Assembly (NCBI GenBank): GCA_973895155.1 | Contig: OZ316894.1 | Span: 14,808,599-14,872,598, forward strand | Reading direction: 5' to 3' | DNA: 64,000 nucleotides | Source: Marsupella aquatica | Lineage: Eukaryota; Plantae; Marchantiophyta | Shown: in pieces, positions 27,536 to 64,000 of the stretch | Layout: each line of letters begins with the position of its first letter | Numbering within the stretch: the first letter of the stretch is position 1 | The notes under the pieces: model-generated | What the model was told of the DNA's origin: nothing | Database searches by the model: none | What the model saw: only the letters and a program-made list of their open reading frames with translations | Program-made: the position numbers and the translations under genes

Positions 27536-27547
27536 GGTCCCAATCCA

Positions 27548-38955: not shown

Positions 38956-41900
38956 CACTAGTAGAAACCGGGGTAATTTAGACCATACCTTATAGGACTA
39001 AGCCCACTAAGTCCTTCTTCCATACTTTAAATGACTCGCATCCATTGCCAAGGTTTTGTTAAAGACTATAAAAGACTTTGAGTGTTTTCATCTTTAGTTA
39101 AAGACTATGAAAAGTAACCTTGCTACTTTGTGAAGGGTGAACACTCTAGGACATCATGGGTTTTGTTCTTGGAATCACTCTAAAGGTCCACACAAAGACT
39201 AGTATAATACAAAGTCTTACAAGGGTTCATGATAAGAGTATACTTAAGAAGGACCGGCGACATGCTACTTTTTGGCCTAAGTGCTTAAGGACATGCCTTG
39301 TATATATCACCAACCTTAACTAACATTGCACCGTAAATATCCATGTAACGGGTACTTTTCATAACTTAGGGTACAACTGTACTGGAGGGCTTAGGGTGGT
39401 TTCTAACCGGAACCGGAACTAATGCATCACTATAACCCTAGCTAGGTACAACTCCCACACCATGATATATTCCGCATTGCCAACTAGTGTCATTTTAATA
39501 GGGTCATGGCCACTAATTGGCACAATGAACAGTCTAGCCCGTGATTGATTTTAGTCTAAATGATGGTGCCTTTTGATCCAAGATTAATTCCACAAGGGGG
39601 GGGAGGGTTAGGGTGGGGCACAACTAATTAAGTGGCCATGACTTTGTCACCAAAGGATTTTATTTAAAGTTATCCTTAACCCGTGTTAGTTTTGTGTCTT
39701 TTGTTGCCTAACACTCTAGCGCGGACGTACTTATTATGCTCAACGGGTCACCTCAACGGAAACGAGCTTACATGACTGCTTGCACTAAGTCTTGGGTTAG
39801 GGTGACTGTGCTTTGGTCATCATAGCAAATTAGGAATATTGCATTTTAGGACTGGATTTAATGTTGGGCAACCTTAATCCTGATTATGGCACAATAGAAT
39901 GCCACTATGTGCCGACCATGTATGTGCAAATATGACCATTCATTGCCTTCTTAGGGTAATTTGCCAGGCCATTTTTGCCTTGTTGGAGTCCACTAGTGTT
40001 TACAGAACATATGCTTCTGTGCTCAACGGCTCACCCCAACGGTTAGGGCTTTGTAAATTCCTTCCCCTAATTCTGTTTAAGGGTTTACGCTTAACTTTTG
40101 GGCCGGACTAAACTACATGGGCAAGGCGCGGGAGAATTCTTCGTGACTTAGTGGTCGAAACAAGGTGGTGGGGTCTTGGGTTGGGTGTTCGGGGTTTTGC
40201 CAAAGGGTTTTTCATTGACAATGAGCTTTCTCGATCAGTCCAAGCGTCATGCTGCTCTAAGTGTATACACTCTTGCCATCCCGAGCACCTCACGCGAGCT
40301 GTGAGCAGTTGCATCCTCCTGTTGTAAGTGCATTGATCTGCCAAGCGTTCAAATGCAAAGCTGCTAGCGTCTACTCCCTGTGCTGGTTGAATGTGTAGCG
40401 CTGTCTTGTGACGATTGAAGATTGCCCCTTACCTTTTACCGCCATCGCTGAATGCAGGATCGACCCGAATATAGCACCTGTGCAGAGGCATTGGGTGAAC
40501 ATAGTGAATGCCGTTTGTGTCTTGTGCAAGGTTGTGGGCCTAACGTTCGTGAGTCGTGAGCTGCAGACTACATGCGACTCCAAAGGAGGCATTGGGGAGG
40601 ACACGGTGAAGCAACAAGGAGCGGCGCGGGAGCTTAGAGTGGGCCAACGCTAGCTGAATCCAATCCAGGAGATGTTGCGCTAAGGTGAGACTCTGAGTTT
40701 AGGGTTGCTTCAGTGTCCAAGTAGGTTTTCTCTTTGCGTCGGCAGCTAGAAGGTAAGCTCGGGGGCTTTACAAAGGGTTAGTGTTGCGGACTTTCCCTCC
40801 TGGACGTTGCGTGTCTTCATTTGCAACTTGTTTGTGGACCTGTGATCCTGAGACTGTCAAAATTGTTGTGGCCGCACCGACAACTTGACGACGCATTTTG
40901 TGGATGCACCGTTAGTAATCGCGACTACAGCTCTCCAATGATTGCACTTACCATTTTTGACCACCTTGCATGATGTCCATCCGTGGGCTGGACCCCAGGG
41001 AGTAGATTTTGGTACATTTCAGTAGATTTTGTCTATGCCCCCGGTCCTCATTTTGTGCAATGTCCGCCTGGCACTTGGTTCTTGATCCCTACATTGTCGT
41101 CTGCCGCTCGGCTGCTTGCGGAAGGGATCAAACAGATTGGAGGTCACTGTGGACTGACATTCAGGCCTGGGTCAAGCAAGGAGGTTAGAGTTGAAGTCGC
41201 CTATGCTTGGCCTTCTCTATTTTCTCTGCTTGCCACTGCCTCTATTGTTGCTTACCATTTGCAGCTGGTGAAGCTGCATGCGGGTTGCATCTATTCTACG
41301 GGCGCGCTACGGGTGTTTTATGGATTGTGGACTTTATGTGGTGCGAGAATCGGTAACAACATGAACCGGACTTTTTTTACAGTCTTGGAATGTGCGTGAG
41401 CTGTGAAGGTTGCGCTTCAGAGCTGATATTCCTGTCGCCGCCTACTCCCATTGTTGTGTGTTCGTAACGTTGTGGATCGTAACGTTGGAACTCGGAGCTG
41501 AGCTGCGCACTGTCAACCATCAAGCGCTGTTGCGCGTTGTCAACCAAGAGGAGATGCCGCATCCCACATTGAGTTGAACATTCAGCTAGGGACCTGAGCT
41601 GCGCACTTTCAACCATCGAGCAACGACCAAGCTTGGCAGCGCTCTGGGATTTATCGGCCACATTGACAAAGCAGAAGACAGAGGTGAGTGTTCGTGCACC
41701 GTTAGAGTAACCGCGAGTACTCTATTACATGCCTTGTTGTTCTCTATTACATGCCTTGTTCTCCCGTCCACTGTTTCCTGCGATTTTCTTTCTTCCAGAA
41801 GATAATGGTGATTTCTTCTTCAATCAAACAAAACCCCACCCAACCACCACCCAAGAACGTGGGGTGTGCGCTACTTAATCCTCCTCAAACTGGCCCATTG

Positions 41901-43952
41901 TTCATTGAAACCCCATATATTACCGCCCGGCACCAAGGGACCAGTCCCAACCTGTCTTCCGCTTGCCACCCTCTTCACTCTCTCGCACATCTATCTCCCG
42001 ATATTTCATGCATAGCCGAGCCCACCGAAAGCTCTCTCCCTACAATCCCTCCCAAATCAACTTTCTCGTTTCCTGCTGCTGCTGATGTATGTTTGTTCTC
42101 CCCTATTTTTGTTTACTGAATTTGGTCTCTCCACACTTCTTGCTTGACATTACTGTTTTTCTCCTCCCTGGATCCAAACATGCCTTGTGCCCCGTGCTCC
42201 GACTTGCATCCTTTTCTTTACTAAGGGGGGGACCACAGCCTCCAGCCATACCTTGGATGCCGGGCCTGGTCAAGACGGTGGTCGGTAGCTCGTTTTTGTT
42301 TTTTTCTCTTTTGTTTCCCAAGCTTCTGGGCAAGGGCATTACCATTCTGGATTCTCCGCGAGGCGCCACTAGCTTTTTTTCTCGGTTGCCCGTGTGCCTG
42401 CCTTCTTAGTTTTGTTTTTTCCTCAAGTGACCAGGCCATCGCTGTATGCAGATTTTTCTTGTTGTATTCATATACAGTATTTTATTGTTCTATCTAGGCT
42501 GTGGCAAGCCAACAAACTGTTGACAACCAACATGGAATAACAACTATGCAGTGCAATGGCAGAGGACACTGTCCAATACAGGAATGACATGGTTATGTTT
42601 TCAATTCCCTGCTTGGATGAGGCGTGGTGTTGCTTGTAATCATGTATTTCTTCACACTAGAAAAGCAGTCTGTCAGATGAGGTTGTCGGGATTGTCTGTG
42701 GGTCAGTCATCTTACGGACACCTAGCAACGTCAAATGAATGGCGGAAACGGGCCATGTTGTCATTTTGAAATTTGTCTTTCCTTTTGCCATGCTACCCAA
42801 TCACTTTGTTAGTCCATGAGTCATAGATTCATAGATTCTATGTTTTGTGCTTTGTCTAGAATGCTATGGCGCCCATGCTACAATTTGTGGTTTTTGTCTA
42901 AGCACAAATCCTCTCTGTGCCTGGTCTCTGTGTCCCGTCATTTGGATTGATTGTGCAGACGTTTCCTCTTCTCCCAGTCCTTGTCATCCACCAGCCAAAG
43001 CACATTGGATTGTTTTCAAAGGAGGGTTGTGTAGTTTGGAGGGTTTGATCTATGCAGCAGAATTGAGCAGATTGGCGGTTGTTAGTTTCTTCTTGTAAAA
43101 CCTGTCTGTCTTTTCTGCTTTTGGCCATGCTCCTTCACTTCTTGCTGCAAGCTCAATGTGCTTCAGCTATGGCAATATTCACTTACCCTATCCCAACGGC
43201 ACTGCCATGAGCTGTAGGACAGCCAACAGAAGCAGATTGTATCGATTGCATGTAAGTCAGGGTATTTTATGTATTGCGGAACAACTGTCCAAGTATGCTG
43301 CAATGGTCGGTCTTGCGCAGCTGAATGAGCCAATTTCATTTTCCCTGTGCACTTCTATTTCTCAGAGAATTCCCTGGTCATGCTCATTTCCCCCAGAGTT
43401 AGAAAACAAAGAAGAAGAGCTGACTAATTGTAATTCCAATCCATATCCTGATCGGTCAAGGATTGTTCACTACATTGGCCTTGTCATTGGCCGAGGTCAC
43501 CAAATTTTGCTTGGTTTCATTCCTGTGGAGCACTGCTGTGATGGATTTGTCGTAGCATTCTGCAAACTCTCACGGTTTGCTTATGGCCATTATTTGCAAT
43601 TTGCTGCTACTAATATGTCTTCTTCTTAGCAGCATACACCAGAAGTAAGCAATAGTGGAGGTTTAACTGCACATCAACACATCTAGTGAACTACCTCTCT
43701 GCTGCTCACTGGAGGGTGAGACTTTCACTCTTTTTGGATATTGTAGTTTGTAAGCAAGTTGATTAGGAGTGTTTCATGCTATGTTTACACTGTGACCCCT
43801 AGCTGGAACCAATGGAATGACACAGTGAGTGGGAACTGATAATTTAAGGTTGGTTGCTGTTGGTGAGGCAAGTACAGCTCCTGCTCACCTTGCTGATCGA
43901 AGGTGCTTATCAGAGGACGTGAACACACGACATCTCCACAAAAGCAACACTT

Positions 43953-44402
43953 ATGGTGAGGACCCGCAACGCTGAACATGTGCGGCTTGCACGCAAGGCA
44001 GAGATGTTGCGCCTTGAGTATGTCAGACTTGGGATCCTTCCAGCCCAGTCTGCATGGTACTTTGAGTACCCAGTTGTTGCTAGGAACAACTACAGCCAGC
44101 CTGTACCTGCTTCTCCACCCTTCCCAACATCCTTGGTATTTCTGTCTCTTGTACATGACCCGCCACAAATTAGGGCCCAAGGGTGTGTGCACAGTTGCCA
44201 ATATGACTGTCTTGCCTGTAGGGCTTCTGGCCTAGAGTTGGATGACCGTTCTCTTGGATGTCAGTTTTTTCACAGAGCACAATGTATTATCTGGAACCAC
44301 TCGCCATCCTGTAGTGTGCCTGGTGATGTCACTTGTCCTGCCCTCCCAGACCCCACCACCGGTCACTTTGGTGTCTACACATGTTTGGATCACACGCTCT
44401 AG
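43953..44402 (+). CDS. Unknown Cys/His-rich 149-aa protein, cargo copy A
   Basis: Intact ATG-stop ORF; clear homolog at 56708-57160 (GC.HSCQYDC.ACR, CI.WNH, CPALP). Confidence 0.75.
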   Translation: MVRTRNAEHVRLARKAEMLRLEYVRLGILPAQSAWYFEYPVVARNNYSQPVPASPPFPTSLVFLSLVHDPPQIRAQGCVHSCQYDCLACRASGLELDDRSLGCQFFHRAQCIIWNHSPSCSVPGDVTCPALPDPTTGHFGVYTCLDHTL

Positions 44403-45071
44403 AGGACCACTTGTCACACCGCATGCACAAACCAAAGACCATTGACCTATAACTTAACACTTTGACTTGAACAGAGAGGATATTTACTTAAGATTTTGAA
44501 TTATGACCAATTTTGGGTCCAGGGTTTAGGGTCAACAGTACATAACTTATCCTATTATGGCTGCACTAAGTACAATATCCTAATTTAAGAGGCTAGCAAG
44601 CTCACTTAAAAGTCTCCTTTCAAAGATTGGAATTAATGGGCCATGTGATAACCTGGAAAAAGTGATTTATGCCTAACTTATTTGTCTCATTCACTATCAT
44701 AGCCTATTTAGGATGTATAAATTACAACCCTGATCACACTGCTTGATACCAATCCTGTTCAAAAAATGCCTGTTTTACATGTCACGACTGTTATATGTGA
44801 TTCAAATGCATTAAATCTTGTTGCAGATCTCCTTTGGTGAATCATAGCCACAAAATTGAGGTGTAGGTAAAGCTATTGTACGAGGGGATCAGTTTTTAGT
44901 GTGGGCTCAACAAACCAAAAAGTATGTCTACTCTGCACATGTGTGTGAACATTTCATTGCAGTAGCAATTGCCACTCTAGTCTATATGCTACACTGTACT
45001 TTTTGTACACTGCACTAAATTGTATTGTCTGTGCACTCTGCTAAATTGTACTATCTGTCTCATGCGTAGGC

Positions 45072-45752
45072 ATGGCACGCCCTAAAATCCGAGCCAAGAA
45101 GCGAGGGACAGAGGTGAGCAACACAGGTGTAGTTGGGCCAGATGGTAGTAACTTCTCCGCAAGTCAGATTTTCCAGAAGGCAGCTCATTGTTGTGCCATT
45201 TGTGACGATGGTGGTGGCTTAGCCATATGTGAGGGCCCTTGCATGAGACATTTCCACCTCAACCCGGAGTCTGACCTTGCTGCAGAAAACAACTGTCCAG
45301 AGGTGGGCCTCCCGTCAGCACACTAGGGAGGCTGGATGTGCACTGATTGTTTGGAGAAGCAGGCTAAGTGTGCACAGTGTGGGAAGTTGGGGTCTTATGA
45401 GGGCTCTATTGATGCTCCACCACTTGTTAGGAAATGCCCTGACAGATATTGTGTGAGGTTCTTTTGTTTTTCATGTTTGCCCGATCTTGCCACAGCTTGC
45501 CCACTTCATAAGTGCAAGGCATGTGGTCAGCAGGATGAAGATTTTTGGGTGGACATAGTCCACTGTGTTAGGTGTCCCACCATGTGGCACTTTCATTGTT
45601 TGAAGGAGCGTCAAGCAGAAGGCTATGCTTGTGACAGACACATCTATGATCACTCTGCACATGGTGTTGATCGATGGATCTTCTATTGTCATCGCCATGC
45701 CATAGATCCTACTTTGCACACTCCCATGAGAGATCACATTTCTTGGCTTTGA
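45072..45752 (+). pseudogene. Stand-alone EDM2/NSD-type PHD finger cassette, copy A (one in-frame TAG at 45324)
   Basis: CAICDDGG.L..CEG.C.R.FH, CPLHKC..C, CVRCP..WH..CL and FYC..H.ID..L.TP.RDHI match the EDM2 PHD region as I recall it. Confidence 0.85.
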
Positions 45753-46350
45753 ACCTGAATAATGTACATGCATAGTGCACCTGATGTGGATACCTTGGAG
45801 ATTGCAGACATTCCAATTTTGAGAAGAAGGACCTCTGTAGGAGAGGATGCTTAGGCAACAAGTACCCTAAGTTCATTACTTGTTCCTGGGTACATGCCTT
45901 CAAAAACTCCCCTTAAGCCTTCTAGGAACTTTTTTAACTCTGCAATCATTTTGATCACGACTTACATGACACTGCTTAAATTAAATCAGGACTTCTCATT
46001 ATGAGCATATAAGTTACAAGGCTATTTAATTTGCGAGAATTCCCTTAAAGTGTACCAACATTTTGTATTCTCATTGAATGTCTGCCCATTTACAACATCT
46101 GTATGTGGCATCACAAAACAATTGCACTTGTCACCTTCAATATTGTGAAGGCACATATTCAAACTATGAGGTGCATGCTTGCAGGTGTCTAGTACGTTTG
46201 TCCCAATATTTCTCCCGTTTGGAATCGGAGCAGAGACTCACCAGACGATTGGACTGGACCAAGTTATAAACGCAGCATTTTAAGGGCCCTCCGATTATCA
46301 GGTGAACGCATTATCTTCCGGTCTACAGTGATTAGGTGGCCCGTGTGTAC

Positions 46351-47202
46351 ATGGCCTCTAGGAAACGTACAAAGGTTGACCACCCACCTCTGTTGGCTGG
46401 AATCAAAGCCATTTTGATTCCTGGCCACTATGGGTTCACCCAAGTGAGTTGGCCAATCGTACAAAAACGATTCTCAGAGTTCCATGGGACTGAAGTCAAG
46501 GACATCACTCCACAAACTACACATGTTGTTGCGGGGACATGGCTGGATGTGATGAACAAGTGGTCATGGTCCTTCATTGATTCTGCCATTACCAACCAAG
46601 GTCTAAAAGTAGTTGAAGTCTCTTGGCTGACCGATTCTGTTAAACATAGGTGTGTACAGAGTACTGAGCAATATGAGTTGTGGGAGAGTGTCAAGGAGGC
46701 CACTGCAGAGGCTTTGGCTGAAAAGGAAGCCTATGAAGCAGCGGAAGAGAAACCCAACTTTGCTTCTGTCCAATATGGACCTGTTGTCAACATAGGACAC
46801 CATCCTATGCGTGCAGATGCTATATTGAATGAGCATGGCAAGGAGAGAAATACCATTATGAAGGGGTTCAGTGTGGTATTTGCAGAAGAAGGAATTGGGG
46901 AGACTAAGTGCAGACTGTACAAGTCTATAGTTGTTGAGCTAGGTGGAACAGTGGAGGAGAGTCTAATAGAAACCTCCACTCATGTTGTAGGTCTGTCATA
47001 CATGAAAATATGCAGAAAATTCTTTAAGACAATAGTGTGTGATTTTGTCATGAACAACAATCTTTGGGTGCTTTCCCCTGATTGGCTTCTGGAATTAGCA
47101 GCTAGAGGGAAGCGACAGAATGCTTGGGACTTTGATATTTTTGAGGCCTGGCCCTCCAAGATTCAGCGGAGATGTATGCTTAGCAAAGGTGGGAGAGAGT
47201 GA
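46351..47202 (+). CDS. Tandem BRCT-domain protein, 283 aa
   Basis: Two BRCT repeats: G.EV...TTHVV...VVEVSWLTDS and LGGTV...STHVV...VLSPDWLLE; intact ORF. Confidence 0.8.
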   Translation: MASRKRTKVDHPPLLAGIKAILIPGHYGFTQVSWPIVQKRFSEFHGTEVKDITPQTTHVVAGTWLDVMNKWSWSFIDSAITNQGLKVVEVSWLTDSVKHRCVQSTEQYELWESVKEATAEALAEKEAYEAAEEKPNFASVQYGPVVNIGHHPMRADAILNEHGKERNTIMKGFSVVFAEEGIGETKCRLYKSIVVELGGTVEESLIETSTHVVGLSYMKICRKFFKTIVCDFVMNNNLWVLSPDWLLELAARGKRQNAWDFDIFEAWPSKIQRRCMLSKGGRE

Positions 47203-47378
47203 GGAGTAGGAGTCCCTCATATTTTTGTATAAATCACAATTTTGTAATAAATATGATCCTTGAACTAACTCATCTTGTCATGGTTGGTCGCAGTTGAAGT
47301 GATTGTTGTTTCCTGCTGCGTGGGGTGTGACTGTGAATCTACTTGCTGGGCTCTGTTTGGCTGAAGACTTTGGTGGGT

Positions 47379-47912
47379 ATGCTGCCTCTTCCAGACCGTC
47401 AGGCCCTATGTAGGGTCCTCCTACGGGTTGCATCGTGCATGGCTACTGCTTGGGCTTACTTGTGTGGATTGGTAACCAGACAGAGTGTAGCTCCATCCGA
47501 GATAATGCCTGCAGACCTTGGATGTGTTGTGAATGCTGTGGTGAATGAGGATGCATAGTCAGAAGAGGACATTTACTTTTCAGCAGATGAGTTAGACAAG
47601 CACGATGCTGTAGGTGGTTCCTTGTTGCCTGATTTGGCAGATGATATAGTTCTTACACATGTCTGGCCGAGGGTTCTTGTGGTGTCTGGCGCACAAGATA
47701 TCTGCAAATATAGACTAATTAGTACCCAGTGGAGGGACTTGGTAGCAACATGTGCACCATGGAGGGCACTGCTGCCACTGCTTGTAGGCACGGATCGAAG
47801 ACCACCATGGCATGAGCAGGGTTTAGACCTTGATGACTTAATGTACATGCCTGAGTACCTCAGGGCTGAGTGGCATCGACAACAGGATTGGTATCCGTAT
47901 TTGATGTGGTAG
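47379..47912 (+). pseudogene. F-box-like protein
   Basis: LPDLADDIVL.HVW.R...RLISTQWRDLV F-box pattern; in-frame TAG at 47556. Confidence 0.55.
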
Positions 47913-48238
47913 TAAGATGAGGACATCTCACACCGGTCTCGCACTTGGCACCTGTGTCTATGACTATACATGATTGGACTCTGATATGGTCATGGATGTA
48001 CGTGCAGAGGCAGTACATGTGAGGACAGCGGAGGAGTTGACACCCTCAAACATTTAGGAATTTTGTCTCATTCACTTGAGAATAGGTACATGACTCAGGC
48101 ACCTATATTTTTTGTTTTTTTGTTTTTTTGGAACGTTACGTATTTTGGCAAGTACAGTCGGGGGTGAAATCCTTAACAGGAAGTGTATTTTTCACTTGCA
48201 TAATAAAATGACAGGGTGCTGAGTGCGTGTGTATAGTG

Positions 48239-49301
48239 ATGGCTCCAAGGTTGCCTCTTCACAACCCATTTAGGATTAGGCATCATGATTCTAAATTGTG
48301 GATGCGTGAACAAGCCCGGACCGCCCAAGGTAGGAGTAGGAGGATGAGATGCCCATGCACACAGTGCCAAGGATTCAAGTCGTTGAGTTTGAACACTGTG
48401 CACCTTCACCTGCTGCGGCATGAAAGGCACCCTCGGTGGAGGGTTTGGAATGTACCAGCAGAAGAAGACTCCTCTGATGAAGAGTGGAGAGCTGACTTTG
48501 TGGATTCTAATACAGCTAGGCGTAGAGACTACACGGTCTCAAATTGCACACTTCAACAACAAAACAGAGCTTCGTGGCCCACCACAGAGGGTCACCAGAG
48601 AGCAAGTCCTGAGGTGGGCAGCCAGGAAGGCTGATTGGGACAAGAGAAGTGCCACTGATGGAGAACCTGAGGATCCAGTGGTGAAACACGGTGTGAAAAG
48701 ACAGACCTTGATGGACTTGGAGTTGGAGTACTGGAGGGTAATGTACTTAGCCTCCAGCCCCTGTATGATTGCAATTTTAGATTGGAAGCAATGGTGGATT
48801 GATGTTGGTTACAATCCTCCTATGTGGTTAATTAGTGTTTCTGTTGTTGAATTCTTTGCTTTGTGGAGTGCAGGAATTCGAGCCCAGCAAACACAATGTA
48901 GACGTCATGCACATTGAGAAAAATATTTGTGAGAGCTTGCTGAAGTTCTTGTCGGGTGAGAAAGATACAGGAGCAGTTTGAGCTGATATGCAACAGAAGG
49001 GGATTCGCCCTCACCTTTGGTTGAAGCCCCATGCAAGCAATCCCAATGTACTTCTCAAGTTCCAAGCTCCCTATGTGTGCACACAGGATGAATGGAAGAC
49101 ATTCTTGTATAGATTGAGTTGTCTGAAAGTGCCCTCTGGCTATGCTGGTGCCTTCAAGAAGCATATTACAAAGAATAAACTTGGCAGTATGAAAACACAT
49201 GACTACCATGTGTTGATGCAGCACATTCTGCCCCTATGCCTCAGAGGTCTCATGCAGAAACCAGTCCGTAATGTCATTCTTTGACTGTGCAATGTATTTC
49301 G
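48239..49301 (+). pseudogene. CACTA (Tnp2/TnpD-like) transposase, internally deleted and truncated
   Basis: RCPC..C...HL..H transposase-associated domain, DVMHIEKNICESLL, LKVPSGYA, MKTHDYHVLMQHILP (DUF4218-like). Confidence 0.9.
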
Positions 49302-50332
49302 CCCACAAGAAGAAAACCTATGTTTTACTACTACAGGCCTTGCAACTACTTTGCCTAAACAACTCATACGTGGTGCCAACCACTGTTTTTTTAATGGGTT
49401 GTAATAATCTGCATTTTGTGACTCTAATTAGAACTATGTTACCTTAATCACTAATTACAACTCTTTTTTTTGCCACTAAAACTTAGATCACTTTAATTAG
49501 AGTTGTATATTATACAATTTTCAAATCACTACAATCCACCGTCCATTACACCGTCAATGTTTACAACTCTATTTTTAACTAAGATTTTACTACTGGCCAA
49601 AAGCACTACAAATACAAGTACCACCAATATTTGAATGGTAAAGGTGTTTTTTCAATCAACTCCCAATCAAGTGAATCTTTTCCAAGTGATCTTAATTACT
49701 TGAAATAATGTCATTTGTGAGCACACCTTTTGTTACTATAAATATCACCAATAGTGGAGTCATAAATGAATTTTGGCAAAATCACTTAAAATATTTTAGT
49801 GACAAGGAAATTCTTACAAACAACATAAGATTGAGTGAATTAATTGTCAATGTACAAAATCTCTTTAAGTAAAGTCATTATTATCACAAATTTTCTGACT
49901 AGAAATGCCACTAATATTAGAGTCCAATAAATATTATTTGATGCAACTACAAACCAAGTGCCACATCCTCTTTTGGTCCAAAATCACTCTAAAGAATGTT
50001 ATTCTCTTCGCACATTTTAGTGACTCCAAATGCCACTAAGAGTAGAGTGTCAATGGAGGGCCTTGCAAATGACTTGAAATGAAGTAGATCATTTTTCATT
50101 CTCAGAAATCACTATGAATAATGTCATTCTTTAAATATATTTTGCAACTACAAATGCCATCAACATTAGAGTGTCAGAACAGTTTTGACAAATGACTGAA
50201 AATTGAAAGGATTATTTTGTGATGTCCAAATCTCTCCCAATGATGTCATTAGCAACACACATTTTCAGCCACGATATGCATGCCACCAAAATTACAGCGA
50301 TAAATAAATTCTTTTTTACAAATTGTACCAAA

Positions 50333-53127
50333 ACCACTGCAGAACATGTAGTTTGAGGGTTTTGGGCACTTGTCACTTGAAATACCACCATGTTTTGAGT
50401 TGGGAAAGTTATGTGTTTGAACTTCCAATCAAGTGCATTGGTAAATACCAGCGCAACCACTTAACATAAGGTCCTTTCGGGCTCTCATCTTCTTGCAACT
50501 ACAAACTGCATCCATATTTGAGTGATACAACACACATTGGTGCGATCATTTGCCATGAACTAGTGCTAAAAGGAGTGAATTGTGTGGATGCATCAAATAA
50601 GCCTCATATTTGTAATTCTGTAGAGTCTTGGAGTGATTTGTGTGGAGTTCATGATGTTGCATCACTTGGGTGCCTCAAATATCTCCACCTTGGCAATTTA
50701 TGCATCACAATCTCATTGTCGTTGCTATAACTAGTTGGCACACGTGATGGGGCTGTCCCATGGGTTCACCATGGGGGAGCTAACACGGAGGAATTGTGGT
50801 GGCGGCGGGCCCAGCCCTCCTCCTTTAATCGTGACCCTGCGAGAATTGCGGCAAGGTGGATCCACTTCTCATTATCCATTGTAAGTCTGTCACTCCGGAA
50901 ACCACTCGAAACAATGTGCTTTAAAGCTCTCATTTCTAGCGACTAACATTGTCACTCAAGCTGGGGTGGTACATCACGCATCCTTCTAAACAACTTCTCA
51001 TGAAGTGGTAGTCCTAGGATGATTGGGGGGCAAACCACTACAAATGAGGTGGTTTTAGGGTTTAGGGCAAATGCAACTTAAAATACCACCTTTATTTGAG
51101 TTGAGAAATAAATTGGGTGCAAACACTTGCAATGAAGTGTATTTATATGTACACGCCCAATTGATTTGAAAAAAGGTCCTTTCAGGCCCTCGCCTTTTGG
51201 CGACTACAAATTGCACCCATATTTGAGTGATGCAGCACACTTTAGTGTGATCCCAAACCATGAACTAGTGCTAAGAGGAGTGAATTGTGTGGATGCATCA
51301 AATAAGCCCCATATTTGTAATTCCGTAGAGTCTTGGAGTGATTTGTGTGGAGTTCATGCTGTTGCATCACTTGGGTGCCTCAAATCTCTCCACCTTGGCA
51401 ATTTATGCGTCACAATCTCATTGTCGTTGTTATAACTAGTTGGCACACGTGATGGGGGTGTCCCATGGGTTCATCATGGGGGGGCTAACACAGAGGAATT
51501 TGTATGGCGGCGGCCCAACCCTCCTCCTTTAATTGTGGCCCTCCGAGAATGCCCGCAAGGTGGATCCACTTCTCATTATCCATTGTAAGTTTGTCACTCC
51601 CCAAATCACTAAAAACTATGTTCTTCAAAGCCCTCATTTCTAGCAACTAATACTATCACTCAAGCTGGGGTGGTACATCACGCATTCCTCCAAATAACTT
51701 CTCTTGAAGTGGTAGTCCAAGGGTGATTGTTGTTCCCCACTACAAATGAGGTGGTTTTAGGGTTTAGGGCAAATGCAACTTAAGATACCACCTTTATTTG
51801 AGTTGAGAAGTAAATTGGGTGCGAACACTTGCAATGAAGTGTATTTATATGTACACGCCCAATTGACTCGGAAAAATGTCCTTTGAGGCCCTCGCCTTTT
51901 GGCGACTACAAATTGCACCCATATTTGAGTGATGCAGCACACTTTAGTGTGATCCCAAACCATGAACTAGTGCTAAAAGGAGTGAATTGTGTGTCGCATC
52001 ACATAAGCCCCATATTTGTAATTCCGTAGAGTCTTGGAGTGATTTGTGTGGAGTTCATGCTGTTGCATCACTTGGGTGCCTCAAATCTCTCCACCTTGGC
52101 AATTTATGCGTCACAATCTCATTGTCGTTGTTATAACTAGTTGGCACACGTGATGGGGGTGTCCCATGGGTTCACCATGGGGGGGCTAACACAGAGGAAT
52201 TGTTATGGCGGCGGCCCAACCCTCCTCCTTTAATCGTGGCCCTCCGAGAATTGCCGCAAGGTGGATCCACTTCTCATTATCCATTGTAAGTTTGTCACTC
52301 CCCAAATCACTAAAAACTATGTTCTTCAAAGCCCTCATTTCTAGCAACTAATACTATCACTCAAGCTGGGGTGGTACATCACGCATTCCTCCAAATAACT
52401 TCTCTTGAAGCGGTAGTCCAAGGGTGATTGTTGTTCCCCACTACAAATGAGGTGGTTTTAGGGTTTAGGGCAAATGCAACTTAAGATACCACCTTTATTT
52501 GAGTTGAGAAGTAAATTGGGTGCGAACACTTGCAATGAAGTGTATTTATATGTACACGCCCAATTGACTCGGAAAAATGTCCTTTGAGGCCCTCGCCTTT
52601 TGGCGACTACAAATTGCACCCGTATTTGAGTGATGCAGCACACTTTAGTGTGATCCCAAACCATGAACTAGTGCTAAAAGGAGTGAATTGTGTGTCGCAT
52701 CACATAAGCCCCATATTTGTAATTCCGTAGAGTCTTGGAGTGATTTGTGTGGAGTTCATGATGTTCCATCACTTGTGTGCCTCAAATCTCTCCACCTTGG
52801 CATTTTGTCACAAACCTCATTGTCGTTGCTATAACTAGTTGGCACACGTGATGGGGGTGTCCCACGGCTTCACCATGGGGGGGCTAACATAGAGGAATTG
52901 TTATGGCGGCGGGCCCAACCCTCCTCCTTTAATTGTGGCCCTCCGAGAATTGTTGCAAGGTGAATCACTTCCCCGTCCACTTCTTATTATCCTTTGTAAG
53001 TTTGTCACTCCCGAAACCACTCAAAACAATGTGCTTCGAAGCCCTCATTTTTAGCGACTAACATTGTCACTCAGGCTGGGGTGGTACATCATGCATCCTT
53101 CTAAACAACTTCTCATGAAGTGGTGGT
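50333..53127. repeat. About 701-bp tandem repeat, 4 units
   Basis: Homologous landmarks at 51055, 51757, 52458; units carry TTTAGGG-like, CACGTG and CCATGG-palindrome motifs. Confidence 0.95.
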
Positions 53128-56100
53128 CGCTACTACCATCACCTAGTCAGTAGTGATAAATGACATAAATGTTGTAATTTACAAACAACTTACAATCAAG
53201 TAAGGGATGGAGAGCTTGTAAATCCCACTACAAGTGATGTAGTATCGGACTCTCACCAAAGTGCAGCAACTATGTCACCAACATTTGAGTGATACATTGC
53301 TTAAACCACTTGCCACCAGGTAGTGGGTTCGGAGGGGACTGGCAAAAGCACTTGGAATGTGGTGATTTTCCGAAGTGCGAGCCATTACATTGCCAAAGAA
53401 GTTTAGTGAATGGTGCCAAGGGTAATTAAAACATAGAGAAAATTAAAACAACATCCTGGCCGGAACATGGTTTAGGGTACATAGAAGCTTGGGGTTTCTA
53501 GACACTCAGCGTATCTCTCAATGCAAGGGAGTGTCATAGAAAATGTATTATTTTGTAGCACCACTAGCATATATTACTTCTAAAGCTTTGTATGATTTAC
53601 ACAATTTCAAGGAGTAAGGTATTAAAATTGGCAATAGACAAAAAGTGATTCACATAGGGTACTCTAGAAATGAAAATGTGGGTTTAATTAGGATAAATGG
53701 TTGGCATTAGGACCCGCATTAGGACTCACATGGATAATGTCATTTCTCACTTTAAAAAGCATTGCGAGAAATTAAATGTTTACTACCCAAGTAATTATAC
53801 CACCTAGGTAACATTGTTGGTGGCATATTGGAAGTTCTTCATTTTTTGCACCACTTTGAAAGAGCCAGGTAGTCACCACTTAGCACTTATTTGTAGGGGT
53901 TAGACAAGTGGCAACGTTGGGGTGAAACTACATTAAAAAAAACCTGGGGGGTGAGTGGGTTGGCTTTATAACATAAGGGATGGATGGGATGGCCTGGGGG
54001 CTTGGGGTGTAAATTCAGATGGCTAAGATCACCCTCATCCGATGGCTGAGATCACCCTAGGCGCTTCCATGTCAGAGTAAGTCTAGAGTACGGGTTCGCG
54101 CCAAACGGCTATTTGCACCCGCCTTACGTTGGATGAAGAGTTGCAGCGTTCCACTTTTCCGACAAAGTATCGAGGTGAAACGCTGAATGTTGTGGTTACT
54201 CTCTAGCACAAAGGGTTTAGGAGAAGAGAGCAAAGGGGTTTAGCAAGGACCTTGCACTGCTTTTTTTGCCTCCAGAGCTGTGGAGTTTAGGGCTGCGATC
54301 GCACCTCATGGATTGAGTTTGTGGAGTGCGAAGCTGCGGGAGTGAATGTGGGCACGGTGCACTGGAGTTAGTGCTGCAATCAAGGCTCGTGGCTTTTTTC
54401 TAAAGTGGAGTGCAGAGCTGCGCGGGGGAGCTACGGGAGTGCGAAGCTACGGGAGCACAGAGTTGTGGGAGTGCGCGAGTGCGGAGTGTGGGAGTGGCAA
54501 GAGCTGCAGAGCTACAGAGCCACAAACTGTGTTTGAGTGCAGAGCGATTGAGTGCGGAGCTGTGATTCAGCTGTAGCCTGTCGGAGTTCAAACAGAGTGC
54601 ATTTCCCCACTGGAAACGTCGAGGCTAATCGGGCATTGTCAGGTTTTGGTGCCAGAGTTGTGAAGGAGCAGGGTTTTCGGTACGTTGGACATTGGCGCCG
54701 CGTGGTGGGCACTGACTCTCCAAACTCCTTGTCAGCGGTATTGCGGAGCTGGGCAATCTGCAAGAAGGGAGACAGGCAAGCTGCAATAGTGGACGTCGAC
54801 CTACAATGCAGGTTGGAGTTTCTAATTAGTCACCATTGCTGGGATTTGAGCTCTCATTTGCTTTGGGCTATTTGTCAGAGTCGTAAATGGCTGAGCATCA
54901 TTCCACCAAGCTGATTTCCGTTGAGCTCATTTGTGGATAGTGGACCTATTGGTTCACATTGGAGTTGCAAAGGAGCTGGCCAGAGCAGCTCGGGCCGTCA
55001 CAGCTTGTCGGCAGCATAGGTCACAGCTCGGGGGAGGGTTGCCGGTCGGACCTTGGCGCTGCGTGGTGGACACTGGACCTGCCAAACTCCTTGTTGGCAG
55101 TTGTCAGCTTTCATCTGGCTCAACATACTCGCCACTCATTTGTTTGTCAGCTTCTTTCACTTCCCGGCCATGCCCTTGATTTCTTTCAGCTTTCCCAAAC
55201 AGAGCTTACTTGCTCTCTGCTCTCTGCTACAAGTCCGGGTCTGAAATCAGCTGTTTGTCTTGTTTGTTTTGTGCGAGGGCTTCCCAAATGTATTGTTGAG
55301 GCTGTATTGCAGATTAGACCATTACATTCTCGATCCAATAGACCCCTTTGAAGCAATCAATCTGAAGCAATCAATCTAAAACCTTCACAGTTTCTCTAGG
55401 AATTCTTGTCGTCTGCTCATCCTATGTGCTCATTCTCTCTCTTCCTCTCTCTGTTTTGTGCATTGCCTTGTTTGGCAGGGCGCCTATTGTGCTCTGCCTC
55501 GGATGTACCTGTACTGTCGTGGATGTGCTTGCAATATAGCAATAAATAACCTGCCCATGCTGATGATGCGCCTCCACAGACCCTTCCCTCCTTTTGTCTC
55601 TTGGAACACTATCGAATCATTGCTGGTCTGTAAGGCTTACTTCAGCATACTGGTCACATATTGCTTGCTGTTTGCTATAGATGAGTACATAATGGAAGAA
55701 TGAAATACTCTTTAGTCTTGTCATTTAATAGTCTTGTCCTCTCCACGTCCCGGGTTAACTGTTTAAATAGAGACTAATGGTTCACAGTTGAAATAGAGAC
55801 AAACTTGTTTTGTTGTAGAGAAGAAGCTCTTTACTTGCTATACTAGTAGCAGAGTTCTGTCTGTCTTGATCAATGCTACCTACTATCTGGCTTGCTGTCC
55901 GATTCAATACTCTGGTTGCGCTGACATACGTGTATCCGACTTTGTGGTAGCTCAAAGCCAGTGACGTTCACACTCTTGACCTTTGTCTGTTTTTGCTGGG
56001 GCAAGATTGCCGTAAAGTTGTTATTACTGGCTGAAAGGTTTACGTCTCCAAATTTACATTGAGGTTCTACATGTAACAAGTAGGCTACTGCCCCCCTTGG

Positions 56101-56707
56101 TCTTTTGTGGACAATGCTATTTTATTGGCGCTATCCTTGTCATTTGTGCTTTTTCTTGAGGGTTCTCTCATTGCCGCCAATTGGAACACCTCAAGACTTT
56201 TCTTACCAGCGAGGGCGTGAATCATGCACCATGCCAAGCCCCTGAAGTGAGATCTCACTTCATTGTCTCGTATTTCCGTGGATGTTTGTAAATTTTCATT
56301 TTTACTTTCTTGACGATCCTGTCATTTTGGTCAGGAGTGGTCACTCTGTTTCAAGGTCTGTTTTGAGTTTCTTCATCTTGTCTCGTGCTGTTGCTTCTCT
56401 TTCTATGAATCTTGGATCAATGCTACCTGCTCTCTAGGTCGGCCTCCTATTCTGTACTCTGGTATGGTTAATGGAGTCTTGTTTGTGTGCGCGGTAAATA
56501 GAATTACCAATTGTTGGCATTGGGAAAGTCTTGAGCCTGTCTAAGCTTGTCCTTTAAAACGTGAAGGGATTCATCCCTGTATATAAACTGAAATTCAGGG
56601 TCAGTCATGAAATCTCCAGTTTTTTAACCATGGTCTTATAGTTTCAGGAGCGAGTGGACCTGCTGTGGACGTGAGCAAAGCAGCACAGGACGTGATCAAG
56701 AATAGCT

Positions 56708-57160
56708 ATGGTGAGGACTCGCAGCGCTCATTCTCAGAGTCTTGCAGGCACCGCAGAGAGATTGCGTCTAGAGTTTGTCAGACGTGGCACATGGCCAGCC
56801 CACTCTACATGGTATTTTCGTTATCCAGTTGTAGTGCAGAATGACTACAGCCGGCCTCCACCTGTGGCATTACCCTTTCCCACATCCGTGGTGTATGTGT
56901 CACTTATTGGCAAAGTGCCACACGTCAAGGCCATCCTAGCGCATGGATGTATCCATTCTTGCCAGTATGACTGCGTTGCTTGTAGGGTGGTGAACCCAAC
57001 AACCCTGGTCGGTGCTGACAAAGCCGCTAAACAAAGTAGGAGGATATGCATCCTTTGGAACCACTTTGCATTGTTGAATGGTGTGGATAGTGATCTCGGG
57101 TGTCCTGCCCTGCCAAACCCCGCTATTGGGGGTTTCTCGGACACATCATGTTTGATTTGA
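56708..57160 (+). CDS. Unknown Cys/His-rich 150-aa protein, cargo copy B
   Basis: Intact ORF homologous to 43953-44402. Confidence 0.75.
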   Translation: MVRTRSAHSQSLAGTAERLRLEFVRRGTWPAHSTWYFRYPVVVQNDYSRPPPVALPFPTSVVYVSLIGKVPHVKAILAHGCIHSCQYDCVACRVVNPTTLVGADKAAKQSRRICILWNHFALLNGVDSDLGCPALPNPAIGGFSDTSCLI

Positions 57161-58571: not shown

Positions 58572-59141
58572 TTCACCTGGTCCATTTTGGTTCAAATACA
58601 TCATTACTATTGTAGACATCGATACAGTTAGTTAATCAATGGAACAATGATGTTTTGTCATAATCACACATTTTGTGAACTGTGTGAATGGTTAGCACAA
58701 GCATGGAGACAGTGCTCCCGGTTTAATTGACTAAGGCTTCCTAAAACATCTAAAGTACTCAAACTTTATTTATTTGACATCTAAAGGACATTGTTTGATA
58801 TGCACTTTAGCATGCACGATCTGTTACGTCTCCAGTTCCGCAATTCTGAGCTTGGGGCGAAATTTCACTTCGAGTTGGAAGGGAAATTGGCTGCGGTTTA
58901 AGCTCAGACTTTGCCAGAGCATTGGAAACAGCGAGAATGTATCACTGGCAAAGTTAGAGCTGCAATCGACATCGTTTGGTATGCACTTTAGCATGCACGA
59001 TCTGCTACGTGTCCAGTTTTGGGATTCTGAGCTTGGGGCGAAATTTCACTTCGAGTTGGAAGGGCAATCGGCTGCGGTTTGAGCTCAGATTTTGGCAGAG
59101 TGTTGCAAACAGCGAGAGTGTATCACTGGCAAAGCTTTGTG

Positions 59142-59912
59142 ATGGCAACGGAGGAGATTGCCCATCTCAAGGCTTTGCTTGAGAAAATCTTAGTTGTGGC
59201 TGAAAACTCCGCAATTGAGATTACCACACTCAGCAAGGAGGTGACGGAGCTAAAGAATGAGAATGTCAAGCAAAAGAGGTTGATTAGTGATCTTCGATCT
59301 CAAACTCAGGAGAATGGTAAGCAACTCTCATTGCTTGCATCGTGTTTTGGAGACATGGAGAAGAGTATGTGCCCAGAGAAATCAGTGATACATGAGACTG
59401 TAGGGGAGATTGAGGAGAAGCTCAAAACCTTTGCATAGGCTGCAAAACAATCACATATGGAATTTGTCCAAGCCAAGGAGGAGGAGAGGAGAGCACTAGA
59501 GGAAGAACACAAGAACCAGCATGCAAGAGTCAGCAACTGCAAAATATCAGGCCTTGTTGAGGAGGAGAAGGAAGACACCAAGAAGGTAGCAATTTCATTC
59601 TTCCAATCTCAGATGAAAGTGCATGACCCTATCATTTTGCAAGCATATAGGATTGGGCAAAAGAAGGGGGACCTTCCACGTCCAATCTTGGTGAAGTTTG
59701 CAGCTGAATCCGAGAAAGCTAGAGTGATGGCTAACAGGAGCATGCTTAAAGGGCTAAGGATTTGGTTGGATGATGATCTGACTCCCACACAAGTCCAAGC
59801 AAGGAAAATTGAGCTTGAGAAGGTGAGGGTAGCCAAAGACCAAGGATTGGTAGCCTACTTGCGCAATGGACAAGCTGTTGTTACCAATAAGAAGAGAGTT
59901 GTTTCTAAATGA
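59142..59912 (+). pseudogene. LINE ORF1 with one CAG>TAG stop at 59436
   Basis: Same protein as 27548-28318 with the stop at a different codon. Confidence 0.85.
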
Positions 59913-59924
59913 TGGATTGGGACC

Positions 59925-62900
59925 TTGAGAGTCATGGCATGGAATGTTTCAGGACTTTCCATAGAAACAGCAATTGGAGGGGAACCTTTGTTTGAGAATT
60001 TTGACATCTTGCTTTTCACGGAGACTTGGGAATATGAGGGAAATGCTCTACCTAGCATTAAAGGCTTTACTTGCATACAATCCATCTTCAATGAGAAGAA
60101 GACCACACGGGGAAGAGGGTTTGGAGGCATTGCTGTCTACACCAAGAATCAACTTCAACACATCACCTCTATTGAACATGAAGATCCCAGCAAGCAGTTC
60201 ATGGTGGTGAGACTTCATACCAAAGGTACTCCATCATTTCTGATTGTCACCTACTTTGCTCCCCTTAATATGAATGTCTATAAGATGGGAATTGCTGATG
60301 CACATTATCCATTTCATAGGTTAATCCAAGTCATTCATGATATATCACCACTAGGGGAGACATGGATAGTGGGGGACTTTAATGCCAGGGTATCTAATGA
60401 ACAATTTACTGAAAGTGAGGACTTAGGAACTTTACCTTGGTCATCATGTAGTGAAGAGATACCTTGGGTGAGAGAGGCTCTTGACACCAGAACAAATGAC
60501 ATGACACGTCACTTTTTGCATTTGGGAGCTTCTTGTAATCTAAGAATATTGAATGGGCTTGAGAGATTTCCCCAATCATCTGGTTACACTTTTAGATCTA
60601 AACAAGGATGTAGTACCATTGATTACCTTCTTGCCTCACCTACCTCTGCCACTAGAGTGGTTGACTTTCAAATACTTGATCAACAACCAGAGTCTTCACA
60701 CTTGCCTTTGTTGTTCCATCTTGACCTGACCACAATCCCAAACAAAGTGCATAGAAAGCCAGTACCCAAACCTCTGTTTGTAGACCCTGATAGAGAAGTC
60801 ATCTTCAAAGCCAACTTTGAACATCTTCTCCATACCCTGGATGATCAGATTGAGCTCTCAGAAGTCATAGCACAAGCAGCAGCCTCTACTTTCTCCACCA
60901 AACCCCCTAGAAAGCAAAACATGAAGGCTTGGTTTGACGAGGATTGTGCTAGAGCAAGGATGCAAGCAAGATCACATTCAGGGGAAAAGAGACTTTTGGC
61001 ATTCACTATGTACAAGAACTTCATCAAACACAAGAAGAGGTGCTTCTTGAAAAGTCATCAACAATCACTATGTGAGGAGTTCATCAAACATCCAAAACGT
61101 TTTTGGGAGAGAATGCAATCAGGCAAGACTACTCCCCCCTTGGATCAAATCAATATTGAATGGGCTTGAGAGATTTCCCCAATCATCTGGTTACACTTTT
61201 AGATCTAAACAAGGATGTAGTACCATTGATTACCTTCTTGCCTCACCTACCTCTGCCACTAGAGTGGTTGATTTTCAAATACTTGATCAACAACCAGAGT
61301 CTTCACACTTGCCTTTGTTGTTCCATCTTGACCTGACCACAATCCCAAACAAAGTGCATAGAAAGCCAGTACCCAAACCTCTGTTTGTAGACCCTGATAG
61401 AGAAGTCATCTTCAAAGCCAACTTTGAACATCTTCTCCATACCCTGGATGATCAGATTGAGCTCTCAGAAGTCATAGTACAAGCAGCAGCCTCTACTTTC
61501 TCCACCAAACCCCCTAGAAAGCAAAACATGAAGGCTTGGTTTGACGAGGATTGTGCTAGAGCAAGGATGCAAGCAAGATCACATTCAGGGGAAAAGAGAC
61601 TTTTGGCATTCACTATGTACAAGAACTTCATCAAACACAAGAAGAGGTGCTTCTTGAAGAGTCATCAACAATCACTATGTGAGGAGTTCATCAAACATCC
61701 AAAACGTTTTTGGGAGAGAATGCAATCAGGCAAGACTACTCCCCCCTTGGATCACCAGGACCTGGTAACCTATGTCACATCCTTGTATTTCTTTCCAGAT
61801 GCTAGTGGCATGCCTTTGCCCCTTGGGGACACCATTCAGTTTACAGAGAGGGAGGTGAAGGTGCATCTTTCCCACATGCAACATGGGAAAGCTAAAGATC
61901 TGTTGGGCCTGAACTTGGAGCTTCTTTTGTGGGGAGGACCCTCTTTATTAACAAACTTGGTGCATGAGCTGAATCAAGCAATGGCTTTAGGTTTACCTAA
62001 AGCTTGGATGACCAGAAGAGTGGTGCCTATCTTCAAGGCAGGCAACAAGGACGATGTGCACAACTACAGAACCATCATGGTAGGCAATACTTTTGCTAAA
62101 GTTTTGGGAGGACTACTTGAAGCCAGATTAAGCTCTTGGTTGGAGAGTGAGATGAAAAGGGCACCTTCACAAGCAGGTTTTAGGAGAGAATTCAGCACTA
62201 TGGATCACATTCTCTGCTTGAGGGTGTTGTGTGAAAAGGCCAAATCTCCACATAAACCATTATTTTGCTTGTTTGTGGACTTCTCCAAGGCCTTTGACAA
62301 AGTTTCCCGATCCAAGCTTTGGGATAGGATGGTGGAGTTGGAAGTGCCTGAAGAGCTCAGGTTGGCTGTTTCTAAATTGTACCAAGAAGTGCGCATCAAA
62401 CTTTCAAAGGAAACCTCTGAAGAAATCTGGAGCACTCTTGGGGTGATCCAAGGTTGTCCTCTCTCACCAACTCTATTTGGCATCTTCATTGATCAGCTAC
62501 ACAACATTTTGGAGGAGCATGGTGGAGTTGGCACTCAATTGGGTAGGTTTGTCCTCCAACTTCTTATATTTGCAGATGATGTGGTCCTACTTGCTCATGC
62601 TCAAGAAGCTTTGCAAAGACATCTCAATGCCTTGGAGGAGTTTTGTCAAGCAACAGGGATGGTAGTCAACCTCAAGAAGACCAAGTGTTTGGGCATTGGC
62701 ACACGACAAAATCCAGAGCTCTACTTCCAAGGGAATCTGGTGGAATTTGTGAGGACCTACAAATACCTTGGGGTGGAGTTCTCTCAAAACTTGAGTTGGG
62801 CCTCATGTGTAAAATCTAGGGCTGCCAATGGGTACAGAGCTTTTTATGCATTCATGAACAAATGCAAAAGAGCTGGTCTACACACTTGGAGGTTAAGGAA

Positions 62901-63736
62901 ACATCTCTTTGGAGCTTTGGTGAAACCAGTCATTCTTTATGGAGCACCAATTTGGGGAGCAGGTGTGTCTAAATCTGGGTGGCAACAGATTGAGGGGCTG
63001 CAAAAGCTATTTCTTGAGATGGAGCTTGGGATCAAGTCACAAACCCCATATACACTTACACTTGCAGAGGCAGGCTTGTTTCCTTTGGAGGTGGAGGCAC
63101 TCTTCCACACACTCAAATACATCATGCGTGTAAGAGAGTTGGAGGAAAACAGATTTCCTTTTCATGCCTTGCGCTCATCTTCAGCTAAAGGGTGGTATGC
63201 AGATGTGTGCAGGTGGGCCCATGCTTGGGGATTTTCCTGAACATGAATGGCCAACACACCCAACCAAGCTAAGAGCAAAACTTGAGCAAAAGGCTTTGCA
63301 CAAACTTTGGCATGAACCTAGCCCACGGCAGCAATACTACATGAGAGATGTGAACCCCATGAAGAAATATCGAGAACAAGAATACTTATCTAGCACTATC
63401 TCAGTACAACTTAGACAACTTATTGCTCAGTATAGACTAAGCTCACACCACCTTGAAGTAGAACAAGGGAGATGGAAGGATATTGACAGGAAAAAGAGGG
63501 TTTGTCAACTATGTGATAGCTCTAGTATAGAGAATGAATATCATGTATTCATTGCTTGCAAGTTTTATGAGGGGGTTAGGATGGCATCTCAAATCTTGGT
63601 GAAAGATTTGTATGCATTGTTTGGTCTGCCCCCTCAACAACTTGGAAGATATATCTTTGCGGTGGATAGGGAAAGGAGAATAGGTTTGGAAAATCTTTCA
63701 GGGCTCTCTAGGTCCATAGTTTCTTTGAGGACATAG
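59925..63736 (+). pseudogene. LINE ORF2 (APE endonuclease, reverse transcriptase, C-terminal CCHC), disrupted by the duplication and a 1-bp G insertion near 63230
   Basis: NYRTI, QAGFR, FVDFSKAFD, GVIQGCPLSP, FADD, YKYLG; RLSSHHLEVEQGRW...CQLC...ENEYH...C typical of RTEX-like elements. Confidence 0.92.
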
Positions 63737-64000
63737 TTGTCCTCTTCTGAGCAATCTCTTTTGGTTGCTCTTTTCTTTGATTGCATTGTACTTTACTTTT
63801 TGTGGCAGCTCCTTTGACTTTCATGGTCCCGGAGCTTATAATACATTACCATTACCATTACCATTACCAGTATAGACTAAGCTCACACCACCTTGAAGTA
63901 GAACAAGGGAGATGGAAGGATATTGACAGGAAAAAGAGGGTTTGTCAACTATGTGATAGCTCTAGTATAGAGAATGAATATCATGTATTCATTGCTTGCA

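Follow-up and report, generated by a model that had tools for sequence, protein, structure and literature searches.

A tandem-BRCT gene in a defective CACTA/EnSpm transposon copy of the liverwort Marsupella aquatica: a member of an apparently undescribed accessory-gene family with a possible link to end joining

Gene content of the locus

The window, which is the whole 64,000-nucleotide stretch of Marsupella aquatica DNA that was analysed (assembly GCA_973895155.1, contig OZ316894.1, positions 14,808,599 to 14,872,598 of the forward strand), carries five genes or gene remnants in one orientation: a Cys/His-rich frame termed ORF-X, an NSD-type PHD-finger gene, a tandem-BRCT gene, an F-box-like ORF, and a broken transposase. 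They are followed by a second group of features, read as a nested element and termed element B. The features, in window coordinates, are:

43953..44402, + strand: ORF-X, a Cys/His-rich frame of 149 aa without a Pfam match; the element B copy shares 74 of the 149 residues
45072..45752, + strand: triple NSD-type PHD-finger gene of 226 codons, interrupted by an in-frame TAG (45324-45326); three ordered Pfam matches
46351..47202, + strand: tandem-BRCT ORF, 283 aa, intronless, without a catalytic domain; ATG at 46351, TGA at 47200-47202
46384..46689, + strand: BRCT repeat 1 (aa 12-113), placed by the structure model and alignment
46846..47154, + strand: BRCT repeat 2 (aa 166-268), placed by Pfam and fold search; K186/L189 align with R57/L60 of human DNA polymerase lambda
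47499..47912, + strand: F-box-like ORF, degenerate, with an in-frame stop just before 47559; Pfam F-box at E 0.07-0.09 only
48239..48532, + strand: N-terminal part of a CACTA transposase (TnpD) with a Transpos_assoc domain, from Pfam
48531..49303, + strand: presumed post-core segment of TnpD, disrupted by a frameshift and two TGA stops and ending abruptly at 49303; no Pfam hit
49304..49316, + strand: candidate 5' terminus of element B (nested, CACTA-like), CACAAGAAGAAAA, a one-change CACTA variant, from contig comparison
49468..53296, + strand: element B subterminal region with a motif of ~40 nt at a spacing of ~124 nt, from repeat analysis
56708..57160, + strand: element B counterpart of ORF-X, an open frame of 150 aa, ~50% identity
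57919..58571, + strand: element B counterpart of the PHD gene, with a frameshift near 58380 and 87 identities in comparison with the gene at 45072..45752
58787..64000, + strand: LINE retrotransposon interrupting element B, 216 nt past the element B PHD gene

The transposon context of the BRCT gene, first proposed in a sequence-only reading of the window, is borne out by the CACTA transposase remnant, which begins 1037 nt 3' of the BRCT stop codon on the same strand; its Transpos_assoc match has an E-value of 2e-5 and 25 bits, below the domain cut-off of 27.7. The stretch from 48531 to 49303 is assigned to TnpD from motifs typical of that protein, and presumably represents its post-core part. 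An intact DDE core is missing from the window element, as no Transposase_21 match was obtained with Pfam. A 1055-nt contig (contig 6) from run X5 shows 4 differences from 48232-48532 and then continues for 754 nt more at the point where the window jumps to the post-core sequence; the catalytic core of TnpD thus appears to have been deleted at ~48532, the alternative reading being an insertion in the X5 copy rather than a deletion in the window. Past 49303, 6 contigs of run X3 and 11 of run X2 continue with other open-frame sequence reading RICVKVWD. A CACTA...TAGTG pair of termini for the BRCT-bearing element was not found in the window, and the subterminal motif of element B has no strong match upstream of it. 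The assignment of the BRCT gene to a defective, non-autonomous CACTA/EnSpm copy holds.

Element B is read as a second, nested CACTA-like element that landed at 49303/49304 within the transposase gene of a relative, and it shares the order of ORF-X and PHD gene with its host; one low-depth contig from run X6 has the same element start behind different letters. Its subterminal region, a type of repeat that is a feature of CACTA/EnSpm transposons, leads into four tandem units of ~703 nt at 50468-53140. A single contig of X2 bridges 53843 to 56349 directly, and the intervening sequence may be absent from other copies of element B. The expected site of a BRCT gene in this element lies ~600 nt beyond its PHD gene; since the LINE at 58787 cuts the element ahead of that site, only one BRCT gene is present in the window. 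The TAGTG at 53150 was considered as the 3' end of an element and rejected, as it has no matching 5' end and the insertion at 49303/49304 fits better. A 1878-nt inverted repeat (26450-28327 and 59133-61010) was likewise rejected as a giant terminal repeat; it corresponds to two LINE copies. These copies are 99% identical, lie in opposite orientation at 26450-28853 (−) and 58787-64000 (+), and both carry tandem repeats of 181 nt at the 5' end; in the right copy there is also an internal 607-nt duplication (60545/61152), which may be real or an assembly artefact.

Other repetitive sequence is found elsewhere in the window. Three long ORFs of 296, 442, and 236 aa without Pfam matches lie at 16408-19442 (+), a region described here as an unclassified DNA transposon with a 7-nt-based repeat array alongside (19657-20079); the acidic motifs of the middle ORF (442 aa) look to us like those of a DDE-type transposase. 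The region 34629-38957 (−) holds Mutator-like (MULE-like) fragments, with coiled-coil ORFs and a RING-like frame (34629-35093; Pfam E 0.04) after them; the fragments at 37700-38957, which have no Pfam hit, are taken by us to derive from a Mutator-type transposase, and are on the opposite strand from the BRCT gene and not linked to it. The window also contains gypsy-type remnants and shows CG depletion; with the CACTA and LINE remnants, these features point to a land plant as the likely host.

The PHD gene encodes a stand-alone triple PHD protein; its layout and C-terminal motif are, in our estimation, like those of the PHD cassette of Arabidopsis EDM2. EDM2 is a reader of H3K9me2 at transposon-containing introns. 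The triple PHD protein could be an anti-silencing or read-through factor. The PHD protein of element B starts with MARTKHKARK (57919-57950); a search with its first 20 residues returned the N-terminus of histone H3 as the sole solved-structure match (E 7.9). The likeness is weaker at 45072-45100, and lysines at the positions of H3 K4 and K9 are present in both PHD copies. A histone-tail mimic on a histone reader is a possible, statistically weak interpretation of the PHD N-terminus; ORF-X, whose frame is open in both elements, is possibly a new zinc-binding accessory protein. EDM2 itself acts at heterochromatin (PMC3632883, PMC7529245).

The tandem-BRCT gene and its predicted fold

The BRCT frame contains no stop within 283 codons, which for a random frame of equal length has P ~1e-7. 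The protein matches Pfam PF00533 over two stretches with 48.8 bits (cut-off 21.3; E 8e-13), and PF16589 with 30.1 bits against a cut-off of 27.3. Through AlphaFold modeling on a 14-sequence alignment (mean pLDDT 77.7, pTM 0.48; pLDDT 31 when predicted from 2 sequences alone) the protein is predicted to have two well-defined α/β domains at about residues 12-113 and 166-266, separated by a helix (115-133) and a linker of low confidence (135-164; pLDDT <50). The best solved-fold match of the model is the BRCT domain of PARP4 (Z 15.6, rmsd 1.7 over 96 residues), and nearly all leading fold matches are DNA-damage or replication proteins; the conserved Trp of the last BRCT helix is invariant across the single-repeat alignment. 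Open frame, Pfam, model, and fold search agree on an intact tandem-BRCT gene, as had been claimed from the letters, and the motifs then quoted for the second repeat are located at residues 170-213. The further claim that no catalytic domain follows is also correct: the frame ends at 47202, and no polymerase match was obtained with Pfam among the frames scanned. The N-terminus is basic in the window protein and in its relatives P0001, P0003, and P0018, and is putatively NLS-like. A single spliced PHD-BRCT gene was considered and rejected, as both PHD copies end at an equal point and P0001, P0003, and P0004 share the start Met of the BRCT ORF.

Other copies and protein relatives

Parts of 43800-48000 were found in 11 of the 13 listed sequencing runs, from 9 studies, with at least half of the words present in 4 runs; the list includes no RNA run and has no bearing on expression. 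Comparison at the level of contigs covered 6 of the 13 runs, and contig depth was not taken as copy number. Run X5 covers all 30 of 30 bins of 46200-49420; its overlapping contigs show 8/300 and 41/224 differences from the window over repeat 1, and 1/220 and 16/209 over the linker and repeat 2. At least two versions of the BRCT gene are present within this run. Multiple dispersed copies are indicated by the diverged X5 contigs, by the numerous contigs at each position in runs X2 and X3, and by the related element in the window. Among the runs compared no single contig joins the BRCT gene to a transposase; their linkage in other copies is presumed from the window.

A search with the window protein (HMMER) of 1.84 billion protein representatives gave 15 clusters at E ≤0.001, all of 62-313 aa; the gene is accordingly present beyond the single copy, as several diverged versions in public contigs and as these clusters. 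No protein longer than 313 aa was found at E 0.001 in this library, which may lack plant Pol lambda. The two-repeat relatives (P0001, P0005, P0007, P0009, P0013, P0018, and P0020) have 17-61% identity in the alignment, or 18-61% with P0020 left out, and PF00533 matches 13 of 14 family members; source names, looked up for 10 of the 15 clusters, are few and read ‘hypothetical protein’ or ‘BRCT domain’. Loci were confirmed for none of the relatives (0/222 and 0/589 pattern matches in metagenome contigs, 0/95 in viral contigs, 0/75 in prokaryote genomes); the distant relatives are known as proteins, and the transposon location is read from the window copy. Longer or fused forms were sought twice, each search giving weak evidence: the first returned 0 of 2471 candidates of 497-2000 aa, and the second returned 1 of 7592 candidates in a range (549-2000 aa) that leaves out the size of Arabidopsis Pol lambda, ~527 aa (PMC4444747). 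The single candidate, P0021, contains multiple BRCTs, none of which scores above 17 bits by itself, and it was rejected as a relative. The ESM Atlas contained nothing but generic BRCT clusters, with scores ≤0.90.

The open frame of the window copy proves little, because without selection it would stay open with P 0.3-0.7 at 1-3% divergence; for a single copy it is weak evidence of function. Among the differences listed between the window copy and other copies, drawn from the 40 best-supported rows of each comparison, 12 of 15 are amino-acid replacements, which fits neutral decay. The gene could on these grounds be a passively captured host fragment without function for the transposon, with a frame that is open by chance next to PHD and transposase genes that are broken. 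Neutral carriage is nevertheless unlikely for the family, because the probability of staying open is already 0.02 at 10% DNA divergence, and several relatives keep open two-repeat frames and shared motifs at ~20-30% identity, which imply long selection on the family. A close host parent of the BRCT gene was also not found in the protein searches; passive carriage is considered very unlikely.

Origin of the two repeats and the phosphopeptide pocket

Each of the two repeats is closer to the other than to any solved BRCT: the repeat-2 profile scores 30-85 bits on the 14 repeat-1 rows and the repeat-1 profile 36-75 bits on the 9 repeat-2 rows, while the best single solved BRCT domain reaches ~34 bits under the family profiles. 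This suggests that one captured BRCT was duplicated early in the family. In an unrooted tree of the 25 repeat rows, built with no outgroup, 8 of the 9 repeat-2 rows cluster with two single-repeat proteins (98/92); the exception is repeat 2 of P0020, which sits among the repeat-1 rows. Both repeats of P0020 are repeat-1-like, which points to either a conversion or another, independent duplication in the family.

In BRCA1 the phosphate of a bound peptide is held by a Ser/Thr of the β1-α1 loop and a Lys of α2. When these positions were mapped through a BRCA1 alignment, the pair was found in 0 of 25 repeats, and a Trp occupies the phosphate-binding Lys position throughout the 14 repeat-1 rows. Family-specific Trp motifs are kept across the family, including a Trp-rich helix in repeat 1.

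Relation to DNA polymerase lambda and the Ku-docking positions

The sequence-only reading had likened the second repeat to the N-terminal BRCT of plant Pol lambda; with human Pol lambda as the protein compared, this likeness is upheld in part. The best solved-structure hit of P0009 is the human Pol lambda BRCT (E 7e-4, 22.5 bits, with the next BRCT at 13.3), and that of P0001 is the BRCT of TdT (E 0.06), both over repeat 2; a Pol X BRCT is thus the best match of 2 of the 6 members used as single queries, and repeat 2 has a Pol X-like β1-α1 segment. The other 4 of the 6 queries are led by BRCA1, TopBP1, PARP4, and Rad4, all weakly; one of these queries is the window protein itself, with BRCA1 as its top match (E 0.05). 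The likeness is not favoured by the family profiles or the fold search. Human Pol lambda scores 27.5 and 23 bits under the profiles, where PARP4, REV1, and BRCA1 domains score 27-34, and it does no better than BRCA1, REV1, PARP4, or Rad4; in the fold search it is ranked 26th-27th with Z 10.5-10.7. The α2 region of the family is as long as that of Pol lambda and PARP4, and longer than that of Rad4.

These rankings give room for descent from another host BRCT (PARP4-like, REV1, TopBP1/MEI1, or LIG4), with the protein acting as a repair or replication adaptor and its likeness to Pol lambda being generic. PARP4 leads the fold search, REV1 is the top single-domain profile match, and the LIG4 pair comes first in Foldseek (E 7e-10, TM 0.28, 12% identity); the LIG4 match, however, is due to linker length, identities are just 12-20% throughout, and the ranking shifts with the method, whereas repeat 2 can be matched to Pol lambda and TdT position for position along its β1-α1 segment. 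Descent from such a BRCT is judged unlikely. A Pol X origin of the family is, on the sequence comparisons, evenly balanced between true and false; the BRCT of plant Pol lambda, an enzyme that none of the searches returned, looks to us closer to the family than the human one, which we treat as a lead only.

Residues K186 and L189 of window repeat 2 align, via the alignments of P0009 and P0001, with R57 and L60 of human Pol lambda. Through the latter residues helix 1 docks on the Ku70/80 bridge; the isolated Pol lambda BRCT is recruited in a Ku-dependent manner, and catalytically dead Pol lambda is a dominant negative, likely through occupying the Ku site (PMC12056208). The BRCT of Arabidopsis Pol lambda binds Lig4 and XRCC4, and plant Pol lambda has been linked to the repair of transposon excision sites, both as cited in PMC4444747. 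An Arg/Lys plus aliphatic pair at the docking positions is present in 4 of 25 repeats (window repeat 2, P0001 repeat 2, P0012, and P0014) and missing from 21, including repeat 2 of P0005, P0007, P0009, P0013, and P0018. Because of this loss a Ku role is not family-wide as it stands; for the subfamily of the window protein, Ku binding is possible, with doubt outweighing expectation.

Proposed role of the BRCT protein

Cut-and-paste transposons depend on host break repair: the donor copy is lost if the break is closed by end joining, whereas gap repair templated by the sister brings it back and increases the copy number. Most of the accessory proteins known from plant TIR elements aid transposition or counter silencing. 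We tentatively prefer, at somewhat less than even confidence, to view the double BRCT as a CACTA accessory protein that derives from one duplicated Pol X-type BRCT and serves as a nuclear adaptor, docking on Ku at the breaks of the element via helix 1 of repeat 2. A CACTA element would have captured a single Pol X-type BRCT and then duplicated it. The product would be an element-encoded nuclear adaptor, in which helix 1 of repeat 2 would contact Ku at excision and insertion breaks; these breaks would come from the transposase of an autonomous partner element. Being free of a polymerase, the protein would fill the Pol X site on Ku and so alter gap repair, in one of two ways: it might tether end-joining factors to the transposition complex (option a), or it might block fill-in, by analogy with catalytically dead human Pol lambda (option b). 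Repeat 1, with its Trp-rich helix, may bind a second partner, most simply another element protein. We infer the Pol lambda origin, the expression, the nuclear import, the Ku binding, and the repair effect of the BRCT protein; a repair role of the family is plausible.

The main rival to the Ku adaptor, and nearly as likely, is that the accessory BRCTs have taken on a new task, that of scaffolding proteins of the element itself (PHD, F-box-like, and ORF-X) or chromatin or anti-silencing partners, with no role in end joining. The BRCT gene is accompanied by a PHD gene and an F-box-like ORF, and the family has retained its own Trp motifs while the Ku pair was lost from most repeats; VANC and MURB provide a precedent for accessory and anti-silencing proteins in TIR transposons (PMC6446971, PMC12973397). 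The persistence of K/L at the Ku positions in the window subfamily and in two single-repeat relatives argues against a pure scaffold, as does the predominance of DNA-damage and replication proteins among the leading fold matches.

An extension of the Ku-adaptor reading, which we consider rather unlikely, would combine the genes into a plant CACTA kit for host manipulation: a Pol lambda-derived double BRCT on the Pol X site of Ku, steering the repair of excision gaps; an EDM2-like PHD reader with an H3-like tail; and an F-box-like protein. Repair might then be shifted from end joining to copying the element back from the sister chromatid. If Ku binding is true, the element would tune the choice of repair directly through an enzyme-free BRCT pair; if the kit is true, a eukaryotic cut-and-paste element would encode a modulator of end joining. 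Even without a Ku role, the BRCT family with its PHD and F-box-like neighbours looks like an undescribed set of CACTA accessory genes.

Comparison with known systems

Accessory genes are known in TIR transposons (PMC4158355, PMC6446971, PMC12730594, PMC12973397), and CACTA/EnSpm elements (ORF2/TnpA), Mutator elements with VANC or MURB, and fungal EnSpm elements carrying TET/JBP likewise keep genes other than a transposase; the window element differs in having four small accessory ORFs upstream of TnpD, one of them a double BRCT. A survey of recently active elements of 2-12 kb in 1007 plant genomes, including ferns, mosses, and liverworts, lists BRCT-type domains in its Table S6 as three singletons, with RTT107_BRCT_5 as an accessory protein in 1 of 775 CACTA clusters and PF00533 unlisted in that table (PMC12973397). 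The RTT107_BRCT_5 Pfam family matches 4 of the 14 members studied here weakly (best E 0.017), and the CACTA cluster of the survey may be a relative. A description of a double-BRCT CACTA family was not found in the full-text literature searched; subscription journals, Repbase, and bioRxiv supplements were outside that scope and may hold an annotation. The double BRCT is thus apparently an old, undescribed accessory-gene family of CACTA elements.

In comparison with the N-terminal BRCT of Pol X enzymes (human Pol lambda, 2JW5/9G9L; TdT, 2COE), the family shares the BRCT fold, the lack of a phosphopeptide pocket, and a similar β1-α1 segment, and in window repeat 2 the two Ku-docking positions are also taken by a basic and an aliphatic residue; it differs in having two repeats instead of one and neither an 8-kDa nor a polymerase domain, in being encoded by a transposon, and in a structural identity of 17-18%. 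The tandem BRCTs of BRCA1, MDC1, and 53BP1 also place two BRCTs on one chain; however, the window family lacks the S/T and K pocket of such pairs, and its linker of ~50 residues is predicted to be partly disordered, with no confident packing between the domains (the BRCA1 and MDC1 pairs superpose on the model with an rmsd of ~17 Å). DNA ligase IV, the top Foldseek row, has two BRCTs and a long linker as well; its identity to the window protein is 12-18% and its rmsd over both domains ~20 Å, and the window repeats are alike to each other, not to LIG4. The proposed adaptor would work along the lines of PiggyMac-NHEJ coupling in Paramecium, in which Ku, Lig4/Xrcc4, and a Pol X with a BRCT take over the break made by the transposase (PMC11997757); there the host gives full polymerases to a domesticated transposase, whereas here a selfish element would give a BRCT-only protein.
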